Part shown: positions 13,531 through 21,512 of the stretch, piece after piece
How positions within the stretch are numbered: position 1 is the stretch's first letter
How the letters are laid out: every line of letters begins with the position of its first letter
Source of the DNA: Gammaproteobacteria bacterium
GTDB taxonomy: Bacteria > Pseudomonadota > Gammaproteobacteria > GCA-002705445 > GCA-002716945
NCBI GenBank assembly: GCA_038142325.1
Contig: JAYQJW010000002.1
Span: 811,328 to 875,327, forward strand
Reading direction: 5' to 3'
Length of the DNA: 64,000 nucleotides
Program-made: the position numbers and the translations under genes
Notes under the pieces: model-generated
What the model was told of the DNA's origin: nothing
What the model saw: the letters and a program-made list of their open reading frames with translations, nothing else
Databases searched by the model: none

Positions 13531-14464
13531 ATGATAGATGCCATTTTATTTTTATCAATAGGACTTGTCTTCTTAATTTATGGAGCAAACCTTCTAATCA
13601 CATCTACAGATGAATTTTCAAAAAAACTTTCAATTTCAGGTTTTATAGCAAGTTTTTTCTTAATTGGTATTGCTACATCTGCACCAGAAATTTTTATTTC
13701 TATTGAGTCTGCTCTACAAAATGAAACTATACTCGCTGTTGGGAACTCAATAGGCTCAAATATTTCTAACTTAGCATTAGTATTCTGTTTTGGCAGTATT
13801 GTTTATGAAAAAAAATCAAAAAACAATGTTTATTCCAAGTCTACCCTTTTTTACTATGATAATTTTAACAATAGTATGTTTTAGCGTTATCTATCCTGAT
13901 AGCATCTTCGATAAAACGGATTCATATGTTTTGCTTGCATTATTCTTTTTCTCTTTATTATTATTTAATTCAAAAAATGAAATTCCATCAGAATCTAGTG
14001 AAAACTTGATAAAAGCTAATATTTCAAAAATACTTCTTTATGCAATCATTGGAATTACGTTACTAATATATGGATCAAAATTTTTTATAGATGGCGCTAC
14101 TAATATTGCCCTTATGTTTGGAGTAAGCGCATATGTAATAGGATTAACTTTGACAGCACTTGGAACCAGCTTACCTGAATTAGTAACTACAGTACAATCC
14201 GCAAGAAAAGGAAAGAGTCAGTTTATAATTGGGAACATATTGGGTTCAAATATTTTTAACATAGGCGTTGCAATGAGCATTGCAGGACTCATCAATCCCG
14301 CAATAATTGATTCGAATGCATTTTTACGCGACATTTTGTTGCTTTTTTTATCTACACTATTATTTTATGTAATAACTAAATCAACAAAACATACTATAAA
14401 GGTTGTATACTCTATTTTGTTAATAACGATATATTGTATTTATATATTGATGATACTTAAATAA
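13531..14464 (+). CDS. yrbG: Ca2+/Na+ antiporter, YrbG family (one frameshift)
   Basis: ATSAPE/GTSLPE and GN..GSNI.N alpha-repeats; conserved position before kdsD. Confidence 0.88.
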
Positions 14465-14466
14465 AA

Positions 14467-15425
14467 ATGAAAACTTCAAATAAGCAATTTGCTAGACAGA
14501 TTCTTAATAAAGAAATAAGTGCTTTACGAAGAACCGCAAAACTCATAAATAATGATTTCGATGAAGCATGTCAAATTCTATCTAACATAAACGGAAAAGT
14601 AATCACTTTAGGAATGGGTAAGTCAAGCTTCGTTGCAATGAAAATGGCAGCAACCCTTAGTAGTACAGGTACCTCTGCGTTGTTTCTTCATCCAGCTGAT
14701 GCTTTGCATGGTGATATTGGGGTCATCAAAAAATATGATACGGTAATTATTTACTCTAATTCGGGAGAAACAGAAGAGATTATAAAGTTACTCCCATTAT
14801 TGAAAATTCTAAAATGCTCCTTAATATCAATTACGGGTAATATAAAATCAACTCTTGCTAAGCATTCCAAGGTTTTACTTGATGCATCTGTAGAAAAAGA
14901 AGCATGTCCAAATAACTTAGCGCCGACTTCAAGTATAGTGTGTGCTCTTGCTATATCAGATGCGCTTGCATTGACTGTAGCTGAAAAAAATAATTTTTCA
15001 GTTCAGGATTTTGCAAAAACACACCCAGAAGGTGCTTTAGGAAAAAGATTATTAATTACAGTCTCAGATATCATGACTAAAAAAAACATCCCGCTGTTAA
15101 AAGTGACTGATAAATTTATCAACTTAATAAAAAAGACTACCAAATCAAATTTAGGTCTCGCTGTAGTAGTTGATAATAAAAATAATATTCAAGGCGTAAT
15201 ATCAGATGGTGATATTAAGAGGATAATGCAAAAGAACACGAAATTTATGATTTAATTTTAAAAGATATTATGACTACTGATCCGTTATTGATTACTCCGG
15301 ATAGTCTTGCTGCTGAAGCACTTAATATCATGGAAGAAAATAATATAGATGCAATACCAGTAATAGAAAAAAGAAAAATTCTTGGGATTGTAACCTTAAA
15401 AGATGTTATCAAATCAATAAATTGA
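14467..15425 (+). CDS. kdsD: Arabinose-5-phosphate isomerase, SIS + CBS (frameshift near 15250)
   Basis: GMGKS, HPADALHGDIG, EACPNNLAPTSS, HPEGALG; second CBS domain in a shifted frame. Confidence 0.92.
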
Positions 15426-15426
15426 A

Positions 15427-15975
15427 ATGTTAGATAATAAAAAATATATTCCTTTTTACAAATCTTTGTATACAGAAGAATTAATACAAAAAGCTAGCCA
15501 GATAAATTTATTAGCATTTGACGTTGATGGGGTATTAACTGATGGCGGTTTATATTTTGATGCCAATGGTAATGAAGAGAAAAGATTTTTTGCTCAAGAT
15601 GGTCATGGAATAAAAATTATTCAATCCATAGGCATAAAAACAATGATTATTTCTGGAAGAGAAACAGGTTCAGTTCTCCATCGTGGTCAAGAATTAGGCA
15701 TAGAATATATAATACAAGGTAGCAGGGATAAGCTTAAAAGTTTTAATGAACAAAAATTATCAATACCTTATGAGGAAGTGTGTTTTGTTGGAGATGACAC
15801 AGTTGATATTGAACTTTTGGAGAAAGTAGGATTATCTGTTATCGTTCCAAATGCCAATACCCTGCTTAAGTCGCTTAATTTTGATTGGACCACTAACAGG
15901 AGTGGTGGAAACGGAGCTATAAGAGATGTTTGTGATCTTATTTATTTTTCTAAAATCATAAATGAAAAAGCCTAA
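15427..15975 (+). CDS. kdsC: KDO-8-phosphate phosphatase
   Basis: FDVDGVLTDG, VGDD..D, GGNGAIRD. Confidence 0.94.
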   Translation: MLDNKKYIPFYKSLYTEELIQKASQINLLAFDVDGVLTDGGLYFDANGNEEKRFFAQDGHGIKIIQSIGIKTMIISGRETGSVLHRGQELGIEYIIQGSRDKLKSFNEQKLSIPYEEVCFVGDDTVDIELLEKVGLSVIVPNANTLLKSLNFDWTTNRSGGNGAIRDVCDLIYFSKIINEKA

Positions 15976-16630
15976 GCTACTACTTTTATTTTGTATAACA
16001 ATCATATTTATAATGAGCAGCTTGTTTGCAAGTACTGTTGATAAAGATACTAAAATTAAAAATAAAATATTTAACTTCTCTTCAGAAAAAATTGATGCAG
16101 TTATGTCTACTGAGTGGAAGCTAAGTGGACAATATCTCGAAAAATATGAAAATAATTCCACTCTTATTAAGAATCCTAATTTAAAGTTATATAAGTCTAA
16201 TTTTTCTACCGATATATTATCTGACACAGCTTTTGATCCAACAGGTGAAATGATTGAAATTTATCTCAAGAATAATGTTTACATAAATAGAACTGACTCA
16301 TCGAATGTAAGCATTATTAAATTATATACATCTTATGCAATTTTTTATTTATCAAAAGATTTAGTCGAAACTGACCGAGATGTTACTATAATTACATCTG
16401 ATTCAATTACTACAGGAAATGGATTATCAGCTAACCTTGAAAGTGGCTTAATTTCGGTGCTTAGTAATGCTGAGAGGAAAATTAAAGACGGTGAAAACAC
16501 AAGAATAATTAAAGGCAATCAGATGATTTATAACACTAAGACAAAAAAATGGATAGTGAAGAATCAGTCGGCATCAAAACTTAAAAATTCAATTATCAAG
16601 AAAGTAAAAACAACATTCAGCTTGGATTGA
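15962..16630 (+). CDS. lptC: LptC-like LPS export protein with an LptA-like C-terminus (putative LptC-LptA chimera)
   Basis: N-terminal hydrophobic segment; LptC-type jellyroll (VETDRDVTI..GNGLSANL); about 45 extra residues resembling the LptA C-terminus; only ORF between kdsC and lptB. Confidence 0.8.
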   Translation: MKKPKLLLLFCITIIFIMSSLFASTVDKDTKIKNKIFNFSSEKIDAVMSTEWKLSGQYLEKYENNSTLIKNPNLKLYKSNFSTDILSDTAFDPTGEMIEIYLKNNVYINRTDSSNVSIIKLYTSYAIFYLSKDLVETDRDVTIITSDSITTGNGLSANLESGLISVLSNAERKIKDGENTRIIKGNQMIYNTKTKKWIVKNQSASKLKNSIIKKVKTTFSLD

Positions 16631-16631
16631 T

Positions 16632-17357
16632 ATGTCAATATTGAAATCAGATAACTTAAAAAAAGAATATGATAGTAAAACTGTCATACACGATATCTCT
16701 CTAGAGGTAAACTCAGGAGAAATAGTAGGGCTTCTTGGTCCAAATGGTGCTGGTAAAACCACAACATTCTACATGATTGTTGGATTGATTAAGGCTGATA
16801 ATGGTAAAATTATCATAGATGATGAAGATATAACTCAAGAGCCAACCCACAATAGATTTAAACACGGTATAAGCTATCTCCCTCAAGAACCATCGATATT
16901 TCGTGATTTATCAGCCAAAGATAATATCCTCTCTATTCTAGAAATTAATAATAAAATGAACTCAAATCAAAACGAAAAAACTTTAGAGTATTTAATTGAA
17001 AAATTTGACTTAAAAAAATTTCTTAACACAAAAGGTGTTCTTTTATCTGGTGGAGAGAGAAGAAGGGTTGAAATAGCCCGCGCAATAGCCTTGAAACCAA
17101 AATTCTTGCTGCTTGATGAACCATTTGCTGGTATAGATCCGTTATCAGTTATAGATATACAAGAAATTATTTCAGAACTAGCGCATGAGGATATAGGTAT
17201 ACTTATTACAGATCATAACGTCAGAGAAACTCTAAAGATTTGTGATAGATCATATGTGATAAATTCTGGAAAAGTCCTTGCTTCTGGCAAAGCAAAGGAG
17301 CTTGTTAAAAATGAAATTGTCAAAAAAGTATATCTAGGTGAATCATTTAAATTATGA
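16632..17357 (+). CDS. lptB: LPS export ABC transporter ATPase
   Basis: GPNGAGKTT, YLPQEPSIF, LSGGERRRVEIAR, LITDHNVRETL. Confidence 0.97.
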   Translation: MSILKSDNLKKEYDSKTVIHDISLEVNSGEIVGLLGPNGAGKTTTFYMIVGLIKADNGKIIIDDEDITQEPTHNRFKHGISYLPQEPSIFRDLSAKDNILSILEINNKMNSNQNEKTLEYLIEKFDLKKFLNTKGVLLSGGERRRVEIARAIALKPKFLLLDEPFAGIDPLSVIDIQEIISELAHEDIGILITDHNVRETLKICDRSYVINSGKVLASGKAKELVKNEIVKKVYLGESFKL

Positions 17358-18694
17358 GTAAACTTTTTCAAACGGTTAAGATTAGTCAGACGAAGGTTTT
17401 GTCTCAACAAACAAGACAAGCTATCAAATTACTGCAGTTGAGTACATATGAACTAGACAAAGAAATAGATGAACTAATTCTTGAAAATCCACTTTTAGAA
17501 AAGAATGATGATATACAAACTGATTATGACATCGGCAGTGCAAGTAACTCCGCTTTTTCTGATCCAGAGGATGTACTTAAATATTATAAAAAAAATGATA
17601 GTCTCAAAGAGTTTTTAAATCGACAAATTGAAATGTCGTCCTTATCAGATGATGAAAGACTAATTGCATCAATAATTATTGATTGTGTTAATGACAATGG
17701 TTACTTGACAGAAGATTTGAATGATATTTTTATTCAAGCAAATAGAATTACTGAAGTAACCTTCCAAGAGATATTTTATGTTCTACATACTTTACAAAGA
17801 TTTGAACCTGTTGGAACTTGTGCACTAGATTTGTATGATTCTCTGGCTATTCAACTTGATTATTTCTATAAAGACTCAAATTGTTATCATGAAGCAATGA
17901 GAATAATTAAGTCACTAAGTAAAATAGATTCATCTCATGATTTAAAATTTGATCAGGAAATTTCCTCTATTTGTAAAAATGAGGATTTCAACGAAAAAGC
18001 TTTTGAGTTAGTAAAGAAGCTCAATCCGAAACCAGGTTTAATAATTTCTAAAAAACTTGATTCTTATCAGATACTGCCTGAAGTTGTTATATATAAGAGA
18101 GATGATAAATGGATTACTGAATTGACAAGTAATAAACCTCCATTAAAGCTAAATTCAGAATATGTTTCAATAATGAAAGAAAGCAAAATTAAAACAGATA
18201 TTGATTATCTCAAAAAAAATTATAATGAAGCAAAATTCATAATCAAATCTATTAAAAATAGAAATATTACTATTCTAAATGTTTGTAAGGAGATTTTTAA
18301 AAAACAATTAGATTTTCTTAATAACGGTGACATAGGAATAAAACCAATGACTTTAAGAGATGTATCAGAAGCTCTAGGAATACATGAGTCCACGGTGTCA
18401 CGAGCAACAAGTAATAAATATGTCCAAACTCCAAGAGGAGTTTTTGAAATGAAATATTTCTTTACCTCTGAACTCAGCACTAATACAGGTCAAATGGTTT
18501 CTTCCAAAGCAATAATGAAAATGATAAAAACATTTGTAGATAGTGAAATTAAACAAAAGCCTCTCAGTGATAATCAAATTTCAGAACTATTCAAAAACAA
18601 GGGAATATCTGTAGCTAGAAGAACTATTACAAAATACAGAGAAAAATTAAAAATACCAAGTTCTAATGAAAGAAAGAGAGTTGTTAATGATTAA
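17354..18694 (+). CDS. rpoN: RNA polymerase sigma-54
   Basis: QAIKLLQLS region I, HESTVSRA HTH, RpoN box ARRTITKYR. Confidence 0.96.
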   Translation: MSKLFQTVKISQTKVLSQQTRQAIKLLQLSTYELDKEIDELILENPLLEKNDDIQTDYDIGSASNSAFSDPEDVLKYYKKNDSLKEFLNRQIEMSSLSDDERLIASIIIDCVNDNGYLTEDLNDIFIQANRITEVTFQEIFYVLHTLQRFEPVGTCALDLYDSLAIQLDYFYKDSNCYHEAMRIIKSLSKIDSSHDLKFDQEISSICKNEDFNEKAFELVKKLNPKPGLIISKKLDSYQILPEVVIYKRDDKWITELTSNKPPLKLNSEYVSIMKESKIKTDIDYLKKNYNEAKFIIKSIKNRNITILNVCKEIFKKQLDFLNNGDIGIKPMTLRDVSEALGIHESTVSRATSNKYVQTPRGVFEMKYFFTSELSTNTGQMVSSKAIMKMIKTFVDSEIKQKPLSDNQISELFKNKGISVARRTITKYREKLKIPSSNERKRVVND

Positions 18695-19145
18695 GGTAAA
18701 ATTAGATGACTCTCATGTAATTATTAATGACAATTCTAAAAGTAAAAAAATCATACTAGAGAAAGCTGCAGAAATATTTTATCAGTCCTCAGGTATACCA
18801 AAAGACGTAATCTTCCAAAAACTATATGAGAGGGAAAAACTTGGCTCTACATCTGTTGGTAAAGGAGTTGCCATCCCTCATGCAAGAATTGAAAATATTG
18901 ATTATCCTTATCTATCGATAATACTCCTAAATGATGCAGTTGAATTTGATAATATCGATGATCTAAATGTTGATATAATTGTATCAATTATAGTGCCGAA
19001 TAAAGATTTTGAAGAGCATTTGAAATTATTATCCTGTATAAGTGAAAAACTTGATAATCAAGAAACAAGAAAAGACTTGAGACATGCAAGAAATAGTAGA
19101 GATATTTTAACAATATTAGAGTCGAATAATTTAGAATTTATATAA
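18687..19145 (+). CDS. ptsN: PTS EIIA-Ntr
   Basis: REKLGSTSVGKGVAIPHAR phospho-His motif; follows rpoN. Confidence 0.9.
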   Translation: MIKVKLDDSHVIINDNSKSKKIILEKAAEIFYQSSGIPKDVIFQKLYEREKLGSTSVGKGVAIPHARIENIDYPYLSIILLNDAVEFDNIDDLNVDIIVSIIVPNKDFEEHLKLLSCISEKLDNQETRKDLRHARNSRDILTILESNNLEFI

Positions 19146-19146
19146 T

Positions 19147-19527
19147 ATGAAAGTTGGTATATTAATAATTACACACAGCGATATTGGTAAACAGTTGCTT
19201 TTGACTGCTATATCAGTATTTGGGAAAAATCCATTTCAAGTCGAATTATTATCTGTTGATAATTATGATCAGCCTAATGATATGAAACAATTAGCAGAAA
19301 AATATGTTAATTTTCTTGATAAAGGTCGTGGAGTTTTAGTTTTAACAGACGTTATAGGAACTACTCCATCAAATATTGCCTCATCTATAGAACATAAAAA
19401 TATAAAAATTGTTGCAGGATTAAATCTTTCAATGATATTGAATGTATTCAATTATCCAGGAGAAACACTGGATCAGTTGTCCAAAAAAGCAATTGAGGGA
19501 GGTGCAGAGGGAGTTTCTGTAGTGTAA
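19147..19527 (+). CDS. Stand-alone PTS EIIA of the mannose family
   Basis: ILIITHS, LTDVIGTTPSN, AGLNLSM. Confidence 0.88.
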   Translation: MKVGILIITHSDIGKQLLLTAISVFGKNPFQVELLSVDNYDQPNDMKQLAEKYVNFLDKGRGVLVLTDVIGTTPSNIASSIEHKNIKIVAGLNLSMILNVFNYPGETLDQLSKKAIEGGAEGVSVV

Positions 19528-19797
19528 ATGATATCCAAAGATCTCAAAGTAACCAATAAATTAGGACTACATGCCAGAGCTGCTGCGAAGGTTGTAGACA
19601 TAGCTAATAGATACAAATGTGAAATTAATTTTTTGAAAGATGATAAAAAAGCAGACGCTAGAAGTATTATGAAAATACTAATGTTGTCAGCATCACAGGG
19701 AACTTATATAAAGGTTCAAATTAGTGGTGATAATCAAGATGATGCCATGTCATCTATTGAAAAATTGTTCAATGAAAAGTTTAATGAAGAAGAATGA
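19528..19797 (+). CDS. ptsH: Phosphocarrier HPr/NPr
   Basis: GLHARAA (His15) and DARSIM (Ser46). Confidence 0.9.
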   Translation: MISKDLKVTNKLGLHARAAAKVVDIANRYKCEINFLKDDKKADARSIMKILMLSASQGTYIKVQISGDNQDDAMSSIEKLFNEKFNEEE

Positions 19798-21512
19798 GTA
19801 TCATACTTACAGGTGTTGGAGTTTCTAGTGGTATATGCATAGGTGATGCCATCATTGTCAATAAAGATAATATCAATTACTCCCCGTCCTATATTAGGAA
19901 ATCACAAGTTAAAGACGAGATCAAAAAGTTTGAAAAAGCATTATCACGATTAAGACAAGAATACCAAAAATCTATAAATAAAATAAAAAATAATCAGGCC
20001 ATTATTAAGTTAATGGATATGCAGTTAACTTTTGTAAATGATAATAGTTTTAAAAATAATATTTTAAAAAAAATAAAAAATGAATGCTGTACTGTAAATT
20101 GGTCAATCTCATCAGAATACTTAGAAATAAAAAAATTATTTGAGAGTGTTGAAGATAAATATATAAAAGAAAGGTTGGCTGATATCAAACAAATGATAAT
20201 TAGTTTACTTGATTTATTACAATCAAAGAGGAATAACAATAATTTTAATAATGATAATATAAAGAATAAAATTATTATAACTGATGAGATTACTCCAAAA
20301 GATGTTATTGATATTCATCATAGTAGAGGTCTAGGAATAATCTGCTCTCATGGCAGCAAGTCATCACACAGTTCTATTTTAAGTAAAAGTTTAGCTCTTC
20401 CAATGATTATAAATGTATCATCATCAGTAGAGTTTATAAAAAATACAGACACACTAATTCTGGATGCTGGTAATGATAATGTGATAGTTAATCCAAGTAA
20501 CTTTGAACTCAAACATTACAGAAAGACTAAATCCATCAATCGTAGCATTGAAAAATCCTATAACAAACTTGCAGCAAAAAAGGCAGTTACAAGAGATAGA
20601 ATTAGAATTGATGTCATGAGTAATTTAGAGCTGTCTGAAGAAGTGAAACTAATAAACTCCAATACAGATGGAGTTGGTCTTTTCAGAACAGAATATTTAT
20701 ATATGAACAGAAATGACTTGCCAACAGAAGCTGAGCAAATCAAGGCTTATAAAAAAGTTTTTAATAAAGCTCTAGATAAACCAGTCACATTGAGAACGCT
20801 TGACATTGGTTCAGACAAAGAAGTCTCAGAAAATATAAGAATAGGACAAATAGCAAAAAATCCAGCGTTGGGTCTAAGAGGAATTAGGTATAGCCTAATT
20901 GAAAAAAATGTTTTTAAAACACAAATTAAGGCCATGTTGAGGGCGGGTTTGGATAAAAAGCTTAGAATATTAATACCGATGATCACTTCATTAGATGAGA
21001 TAAATCAAGTTAAAAAACTCATTAATGAAGCTAAGACAGAGTTAGACAAACAGAAAAAAATTATACAAATAAATATGAACTGGGAATCATGATTGAAGTG
21101 CCAGCTTGCGCAATACAAGCTAGTGTGTTGTCCAAGCATGTAGATTTCATGTCGATAGGCACTAATGATTTAGTTCAGTACATACTGGCTACAGATAGAA
21201 TAGATGATGAAGTTACAAATTTATATGATCCTTCAAATCCAGCAGTTCTTCACATCATAAAAGATGTAATCGATAAATGTGAAAAATCAGGTATTGATGT
21301 GGCTGTATGTGGAGAAATGGCAAGCGAAAAACAATATACGAGATTACTTTTAGGGCTTGGTCTAAGATCATTTAGTATGCATCCTCAGGCAATTCCTGAA
21401 ATAAAAAATATCATCATGAACGCTAACGTAAAGGAAATAAAGAAAAAAATAAACGCGATTCTTGGTTGTAATGATTACCAGGACAAGACGCCAGCTTGTT
21501 GAGGATCTCTAG
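19794..21512 (+). CDS. ptsI: PEP-protein phosphotransferase enzyme I, no GAF domain (two frameshifts)
   Basis: SSHSSI, GLFRTE, RTLDIG, NPALGLRGIR, MIEVP, SIGTNDL, CGEMA. Confidence 0.92.

Follow-up and report, generated by a model that had tools for sequence, protein, structure and literature searches.

We found that in the window, a 64,000-nucleotide stretch of a gammaproteobacterial genome (contig JAYQJW010000002.1, positions 811,328 to 875,327), a single gene lies between kdsC and lptB in the lipopolysaccharide (LPS) export operon and no lptA accompanies it. The gene encodes the LptC of the organism with about 50 extra C-terminal residues; we refer to this 222-amino-acid (aa) protein as LptC*. 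The same long form recurs, with the same neighbours, across the order to which the genome belongs. We lean towards the view that the order runs a natural Lpt machine of six proteins, in which LptC* would do the work of both LptC and LptA. Position numbers are window coordinates unless they are prefixed with the identifier of another genome (G) or locus (L).

A long LptC and the search for LptA

The open reading frame (ORF) of LptC* (15962–16630, + strand) is intact and starts with ATG. It overlaps the end of kdsC (15975) by 14 nt, and a gap of 1 nt separates it from the start of lptB (16632), which is followed by rpoN. Hence, there is no space for lptA in the locus, and the coordinates confirm what an earlier note on this DNA had described, a single 222-aa ORF spanning the kdsC–lptB gap. 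That note had also recognized an LptC pattern up to about residue 175, and profile comparisons bear this out. PF06835 (LptC) matches residues 7–170 (E-value 2.7e–20, 73.1 bits versus a cut-off of 21), and the NCBIfam LptC equivalog TIGR04409 matches residues 8–170 (69.2 bits versus a cut-off of 38) and is found in 19/19 family members. When the 19-member family profile was compared by hhalign with a profile of 14 LptC proteins from other families of the class, residues 27–172 were aligned with a probability of 99.7 and the LptC profile was consumed nearly to its end. LptC chain 9doq_C from the PDB was aligned through the 'LLSNVR' strand (E-value 4.3e–13). Since the alignments to the LptC profile and to 9doq_C both stop there, canonical LptC ends near residue 172–176 and about 50 residues of LptC* are extra.

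The AlphaFold2 model of LptC*, built from a 35-row alignment (predicted local distance difference test score, pLDDT, 90.4; predicted template modelling score 0.80), agrees with this boundary: the last canonical jellyroll strand spans residues 163–176 and is followed by three further strands and a helix at 205–219. In a Foldseek search with the model, ranks 1–7 were all LptC chains (best E-value 2.6e–9), followed by LptA (6.4e–4) and the LptD N-domain (8.7e–4). LptC* thus resembles canonical LptC (E. coli YrbK; PF06835, TIGR04409) in its N-terminal hydrophobic helix and β-jellyroll, in its slot directly after kdsC and ahead of lptB, and in scoring above the cut-offs of both hidden Markov models (HMMs), but it is about 50 residues longer at the C-terminus and has no lptA behind it. 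In the model, the N-terminal helix would serve as a membrane anchor, or possibly as a signal peptide.

We found no other LptA-like gene in this 98.5%-complete genome: at E ≤ 10, PF03968 and TIGR03002 match only LptD and the LptC* tail. Custom HMMs, built from LptA and LptC of 14 relatives, from the LptD jellyroll of the family and from LptC*, detected no further ORF among the 1,947 open frames of at least 80 aa in the genome; the LptD-jellyroll HMM does detect LptA of the relatives (E-value about 1e–3). The locus without room and the outcome of both sets of searches uphold the earlier suggestion that one protein stands in place of lptC and lptA. The absence extends to the family, where 0/24 genomes have a PF03968 match in an LptA-sized ORF. 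At E ≤ 0.1, PF03968 matches are present in 16/24 family genomes, all in LptD-sized ORFs (860–956 aa) but for one, a faint match within the LptC* of G013 itself. Genomes of 16 other families each have a PF03968 match in an ORF of 155–310 aa (16/16, E-values 3.5e–9 to 6.5e–30). Fifteen of the 16 corresponding loci were parsed (L049 of G030, which runs to the contig end, was left out), and these comprise 14 with separate lptC and lptA before lptB and one with a fusion. In a sample of 201 genomes of the class, PF03968 is matched at E ≤ 0.001 in 191; two unpublished genomes (G075 and G153) enter such class tallies alone and no specific claim is built on them.

Some observations weigh against a complete loss of LptA. 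In five other small-genome families (G189, G078, G062, G119 and G143; 1.5–1.7 Mb, 97–98% complete) LptD barrels are present, yet PF03968 and TIGR03002 give zero matches, LptD included. Divergent jellyrolls can thus escape these HMMs, and other lineages besides the order of the window may have lost or relocated lptA: either the jellyrolls of the five families are very divergent, or LptA was lost more than once. In G189 (L077), kdsC is followed by an lptC of 206 aa without the tail and then directly by lptB, with no lptA between. The LptD jellyroll of the window's own family is detected weakly as well (E-values 6.4e–6 to 0.026; 0.0012 in the window's genome). A very divergent LptA may thus be encoded elsewhere in the genome and have escaped the searches, in which case the machine would keep all seven components, with the tail as an accessory. 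We consider this improbable, because HMMs made from the LptD N-domain and LptC* of the family detect LptA or LptC of relatives and find no further ORF here, because the genome is nearly complete, and because the same absence is seen in 24 family genomes.

The order consists of one family with six genera, and its genomes are all about 1 Mb in size (1.10 Mb in 9 contigs, with 31.8% G+C, for that of the window). The relatives are uncultured marine Gammaproteobacteria, represented by metagenome-assembled and single-cell genomes. With LptC* as query, a true full-length relative was found in 22/24 other family genomes, at 30–95% identity and with coverage to residue 217–221. No relative was found with this protein query in G005 (81% complete), and the match in G017 was spurious, lying in an unrelated 436-aa ORF, and was left out of the counts. 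The family profile matches 35/37 genomes of the order, 34 of them through profile position 230–231; the match in G052 is the tail alone, at a contig end. Each of the 19 loci that were parsed has the gene between kdsC and lptB, with a spacing of –50 to +1 nt from kdsC and a gap of 0 to 7 nt to lptB. Locus L006 (G010), where lptB is split into two ORFs, was left out of the parsing; a 222-aa ORF is visible there.

A word-based search with the tail returned 19 near-identical proteins of the same genus from ENA, NCBI, Tara, JGI and Logan; as it yielded only close relatives of one genus, this search is silent on distant kin. Among sequencing runs, a 2-kb stretch was present wholly or partly in 20 marine and estuarine ones from 11 studies, at least half of its words being found in 14. 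The RNA runs X19 and X20 contain small shares of it (0.12 and 0.09), from which we make no claim of expression. One could suspect that a deletion in the assembly took out lptA, and this assembly does contain indel errors: kdsD, a yrbG-like gene, lptD and lptG are affected, in three cases at homopolymers. However, ORF length and neighbours are the same in 19 loci of other genomes and the long form is present in 34/37 genomes of the order; together with the near-identical proteins from separate collections and the 14 runs, these independent assemblies refute an artefact. The single 222-aa ORF described in the earlier note is thus no product of the assembly.

The C-terminal tail and its likeness to LptA

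The tail is under constraint and conserved to the same degree as the body of LptC: pairwise identity averages 0.44 for the tail versus 0.46 for the body, and 0.30 versus 0.31 between this genus and the others. L167, R172, G185, Y190, W197, V215 and T217 are invariant. In the class sample of 201 genomes, 66 have a match to the family profile, and only the two of the window's family cover the tail, reaching position 230; none of the other 64 matches extends past profile position 189.

The last ~45 residues of LptC* align in register with the C-terminal end of LptA (YhbN; TIGR03002, PF03968). TIGR03002 pairs residues 174–219 of the window protein with profile positions 102–139 of 142 (E-value 0.086, 12.7 bits versus a far higher cut-off of 71.7) and reaches E ≤ 1 in 7/19 family members (best 0.0041). 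With a local LptA HMM, the best stretch falls in the last ~70 residues for 23/24 members and in 22 of those is paired with the C-terminal part of the LptA model (positions 107–172 of 177), at individual scores of 1.6–12.5 bits. Comparison of the whole family profile with LptA by hhalign aligned residues 159–222 with columns 117–169 of 183 (P-value 0.0067, probability 5.7%). The tail-only profile gave a score of 22.8 (P-value 0.0015, probability 16.6%), its columns 14–62 being paired with LptA columns 132–172 of 183; the same profile scored 12.7 against LptC and 11.2 when reversed. None of 200 column shuffles reached 22.8 (mean 9.8, standard deviation 2.0, maximum 18.3), a lenient null, since shuffling columns removes strand periodicity too. 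In a search of 1,976 sequences with a tail HMM, the top 40 matches included 4/14 LptA, all by their C-termini, and 0/14 LptC.

The lenient null and the sub-cut-off TIGR03002 score already argue for caution, and further results count against an LptA origin of the tail. PF03968 has no match in the LptC* protein of the window. The hhalign probabilities for LptA likeness are just 5.7–16.6%, and the tail HMM scores LptA at E-values of 0.9–15, which are not significant. A tail-profile search of 1.84 billion representative proteins gave 30 matches at E ≤ 0.001, of which 24 are the same protein type or fragments of it (35–246 aa, with the match C-terminal); there was no LptA and no longer or intermediate fusion among them. 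The other six are long repeat proteins and were rejected as spurious (Pfam on four of the six gives FG-GAP, Kelch, TIG and similar domains). In the AlphaFold2 model, residues 205–219, which hold the 'KKVKTTF' stretch, form a helix and not a terminal LptA-like strand, at odds with hhalign, which pairs 'KKVKTTF' with the last LptA strand. In the ESM Atlas, the neighbours of the tail belong to unspecific Lpt jellyroll clusters of both LptC and LptD_N (scores 0.91–0.93, fewer than 170 shared features) and serve as a lead only.

Overall, the evidence that the tail is equivalent to the last three LptA strands is genuine, though weak, and does not amount to proof of descent. The earlier note had matched the tail by eye to the LptA C-terminus: the specific, C-terminal and colinear profile likeness stands, but it is weak, and the 'KKVKTTF' end on which the comparison leaned is modelled as a helix. 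Scanning the two halves of the protein gave a similarly divided answer, with PF06835 on the LptC part and, on the tail, no PF03968 match and TIGR03002 below its cut-off. Descent of the tail from lptA by an in-frame deletion, as the note had proposed, stays hypothetical, given the weak similarity and the lack of an intermediate in the searches. LptC* also differs from LptA in lacking the LptA core, in having an end predicted to be helical and, unless the N-terminus is removed by cleavage, in not being free in the periplasm.

The tail could instead be a lineage-specific lengthening of LptC that does not descend from LptA and resembles it as any added jellyroll hairpin might. LPS would then cross the periplasm in another way, for example along head-to-tail stacks of LptC* or at a close contact of the membranes. 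The uniformly weak LptA-likeness scores, the missing intermediate, the helical terminal segment and, as a lead, the generic LptC and LptD_N neighbours in the language model would all fit such a lengthening. We nevertheless regard it as rather unlikely, since the best match of the tail is the C-terminal end of LptA, in register, and not LptC (22.8 versus 12.7), since LptA and not LptC appears among the top tail-HMM matches, and since lptA was lost and the tail gained in one and the same gene slot.

A proposed six-protein bridge

The remaining pathway was found in the genome (LptF, LptG, LptE, LptD, LpxC and WaaA, with kdsC and kdsD adjoining), so the cell presumably synthesizes and exports LPS. 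Without LptA, the simplest route leads from the LptF jellyroll through LptC* to the LptD jellyroll. The six-protein machine that we favour would consist of LptB, LptF, LptG, LptC*, LptD and LptE, with no free periplasmic LptA. LPS would be received from LptB2FG at the N-terminal edge of LptC*, in the manner of LptC, and handed on directly to the N-terminal jellyroll of LptD by the lengthened C-terminal end with its likeness to LptA. As to origin, the most likely course would be an ancient lptC–lptA fusion that lost most of lptA and was fixed in the ancestor of the order. The contact with LptD, this origin by fusion and deletion, and a narrower periplasm are inferred.

The LptD jellyroll is of ordinary length, starting near residue 43 ('TLEIRAD') with barrel-type motifs from ~185 in the window's open frame; hence, LptD does not compensate for the missing length of the bridge. 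Two points speak against the six-protein arrangement as drawn. A bridge with one LptA is estimated at ~16 nm versus a periplasm of 21 nm, so a bridge without LptA would be shorter still. The contact between LptC* and LptD is, moreover, a proposal. A complex prediction of the genome's own LptD jellyroll (residues 15–200 of the open frame, alignment A5) with LptC* (residues 28–222, alignment A4, which holds 10 of the 14 LptC sequences of alignment A3) gave interface scores (ipSAE, interaction prediction score from aligned errors) of 0.00 and 0.01 versus a mark of 0.32; it was run without controls and carries no weight either way.

LptD of the family has an N-terminal BamE domain (PF04355) before the jellyroll, in the window's genome (G000:C7:63620–66315, L001) and in loci L024–L036. 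In the 13/13 fetched loci of relatives, LptD is a single ORF of 895–929 aa, and the 13 sequences align across the BamE region. BamE was matched at residues ~56–141 in 4/4 LptD scanned with Pfam (E-values 2.8e–15 to 8.4e–22), and in the window's genome it is the only BamE match. Of 192 BamE matches in the class sample, 150 were listed, and among these only those of the family lie in an ORF longer than 440 aa. A model of the LptD N-terminal part has a BamE-like fold that is connected to the jellyroll by ~50 unstructured residues; its mean pLDDT is 57, and so it is used for rough domain order only. No report of a BamE–LptD fusion turned up among the papers listed by a full-text search. We tentatively suggest, as a possibility short of an even chance, that across this order of free-living marine bacteria an LptA-less six-protein machine operates in which LptC*, a chimera retaining of LptA just the end that faces LptD, hands LPS directly from LptB2FG to an LptD fused to the sole BamE of the cell.

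Shorter and fused bridges have precedents, which make a shorter natural bridge conceivable. According to passages of PMC4986956 and PMC9972910, a bridge of six proteins, lacking LptC, works in E. coli ΔlptC strains with suppressors at R212 of LptF. Like the arrangement proposed here, that bridge has one jellyroll protein fewer, but in ΔlptC E. coli LptC is gone and LptA is kept and over-produced, whereas in the window's order LptA is gone. The same part of PMC4986956 states that no ΔlptA clones were obtained in E. coli and suggests that contact with the outer-membrane complex needs something beyond the ability of LptC. As described in sections of PMC5575297, the C-terminal end of E. coli LptA pairs with the next jellyroll (as is also generally known), LptA without residues 160–185 (the last strand) supports growth, and the figures of ~16 nm for a one-LptA bridge and 21 nm for the periplasm are given there. 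An engineered LptC–LptA fusion transfers LPS in vitro (part of PMC12065857). In that fusion, as proposed for LptC*, one polypeptide links LptB2FG to LptD; as described there, the engineered fusion joins the LptC and LptA proteins, whereas no more than roughly the final fifth of LptA is left in LptC*, and LptC* is natural and order-wide.

We also found a natural full LptC–LptA fusion in a genome of another order, G037, as a 307-aa ORF between kdsC and lptB (L048:994–1914). It comprises LptC in residues 15–161 (profile positions 2–148 of 175) and the LptA core in residues 168–278 (PF03968 positions 1–111). It occupies the same slot as LptC* and likewise has LptC and LptA parts in one ORF, but unlike LptC* it keeps the whole PF03968 core and drops the end of LptC. 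This fusion comes from a single assembly and is therefore unreplicated: its family and order contain no other genome, and no protein record besides its own is identical to it. Long ORFs over PF03968 matches in G219, G151, G111 and G208 were rejected as fusions, LptC and LptA lying in different frames there. No report of a natural LptC–LptA fusion or of an LptA-less Lpt system was found among the papers listed by full-text searches, a scope outside which subscription-only papers and supplements fall.

Genomic surroundings and significance

Features of the locus are collected in the table below. The name kdsC is taken from HAD matches and operon position and is thus putative; the gene lies at the same position in 19 related loci. 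In the region after rpoN (18666–21092), reading of the translations, without a family-library scan, gave ORFs of phosphotransferase-system type: a PtsN-like EIIA, a second EIIA-like ORF, HPr and enzyme I, with no hpf in between.

Features of the LptC* locus in window coordinates
Feature	Position	Strand	Basis
kdsD (arabinose-5-phosphate isomerase, SIS + CBS), first gene of the operon	14467..15255	+	Pfam SIS E 1.3e–21, CBS
kdsC (putative Kdo-8-phosphate phosphatase, HAD family)	15427..15975	+	Pfam Hydrolase_3, Hydrolase
LptC*, long LptC of 222 aa, sole gene between kdsC and lptB	15962..16630	+	
N-terminal hydrophobic helix, residues 4–22 (predicted)	15971..16027	+	AlphaFold2
LptC β-jellyroll domain, residues 7–170	15980..16471	+	PF06835, TIGR04409, hhalign, Foldseek
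Extra C-terminal tail, residues 171–222, weak similarity to the LptA C-terminus	16472..16627	+	
Three added β-strands, residues 179–185, 187–191 and 196–200 (predicted)	16496..16561	+	AlphaFold2, block pLDDT 90–96
Lysine-rich C-terminal helix, residues 205–219 (predicted)	16574..16618	+	AlphaFold2, block pLDDT 83–90
lptB (ATPase of the LPS exporter)	16632..17357	+	ABC_tran E 2.1e–36, conserved position
rpoN (sigma-54)	17354..18694	+	Operon position and reading of the translation; same neighbour in related loci

Several genes of this genome that are intact in relatives carry frame changes. A frame change near 15240 (within 15230–15426) shortens kdsD and leaves the second CBS part in another frame to ~15420; in relatives, kdsD is one ORF of ~320 aa. 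The yrbG-like exchanger gene is split at an A8 run (13780–13890), and lptG (G000:C2:761182–762230) has two frame changes near its 3' end. In lptD, an A7 run (L001:~2005–2013, G000:C7) splits the gene into parts of 168 aa and 738 aa; the contigs of 3/4 public runs have one base more at this run, while the fourth (X1) does not cover the site. An indel in the assembly, or else a difference between strains, probably explains the lptD split. Of the three genes other than lptD, two have their frame changes at homopolymers. Together, the intactness of these genes in relatives and the extra base in contigs of other runs point to indel errors, and the assembly seems prone to them.

Each of the seven Lpt proteins is essential in E. 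coli, and thanatin-type antibiotics target LptA. If the six-protein reading is true, a lineage without LptA but with an LptA-like end on its LptC would reveal which part of LptA is indispensable, and would offer a minimal bridge for structural work. Such a bridge would be much shorter, perhaps about 12 nm by a rough estimate from the 16 nm given in the relevant section of PMC5575297, and the periplasm would have to be narrow or locally pinched. Through the BamE domain of LptD, LPS insertion would be physically linked to the β-barrel assembly machine (BAM). The envelope width of these very small marine cells would thereby become a testable question.

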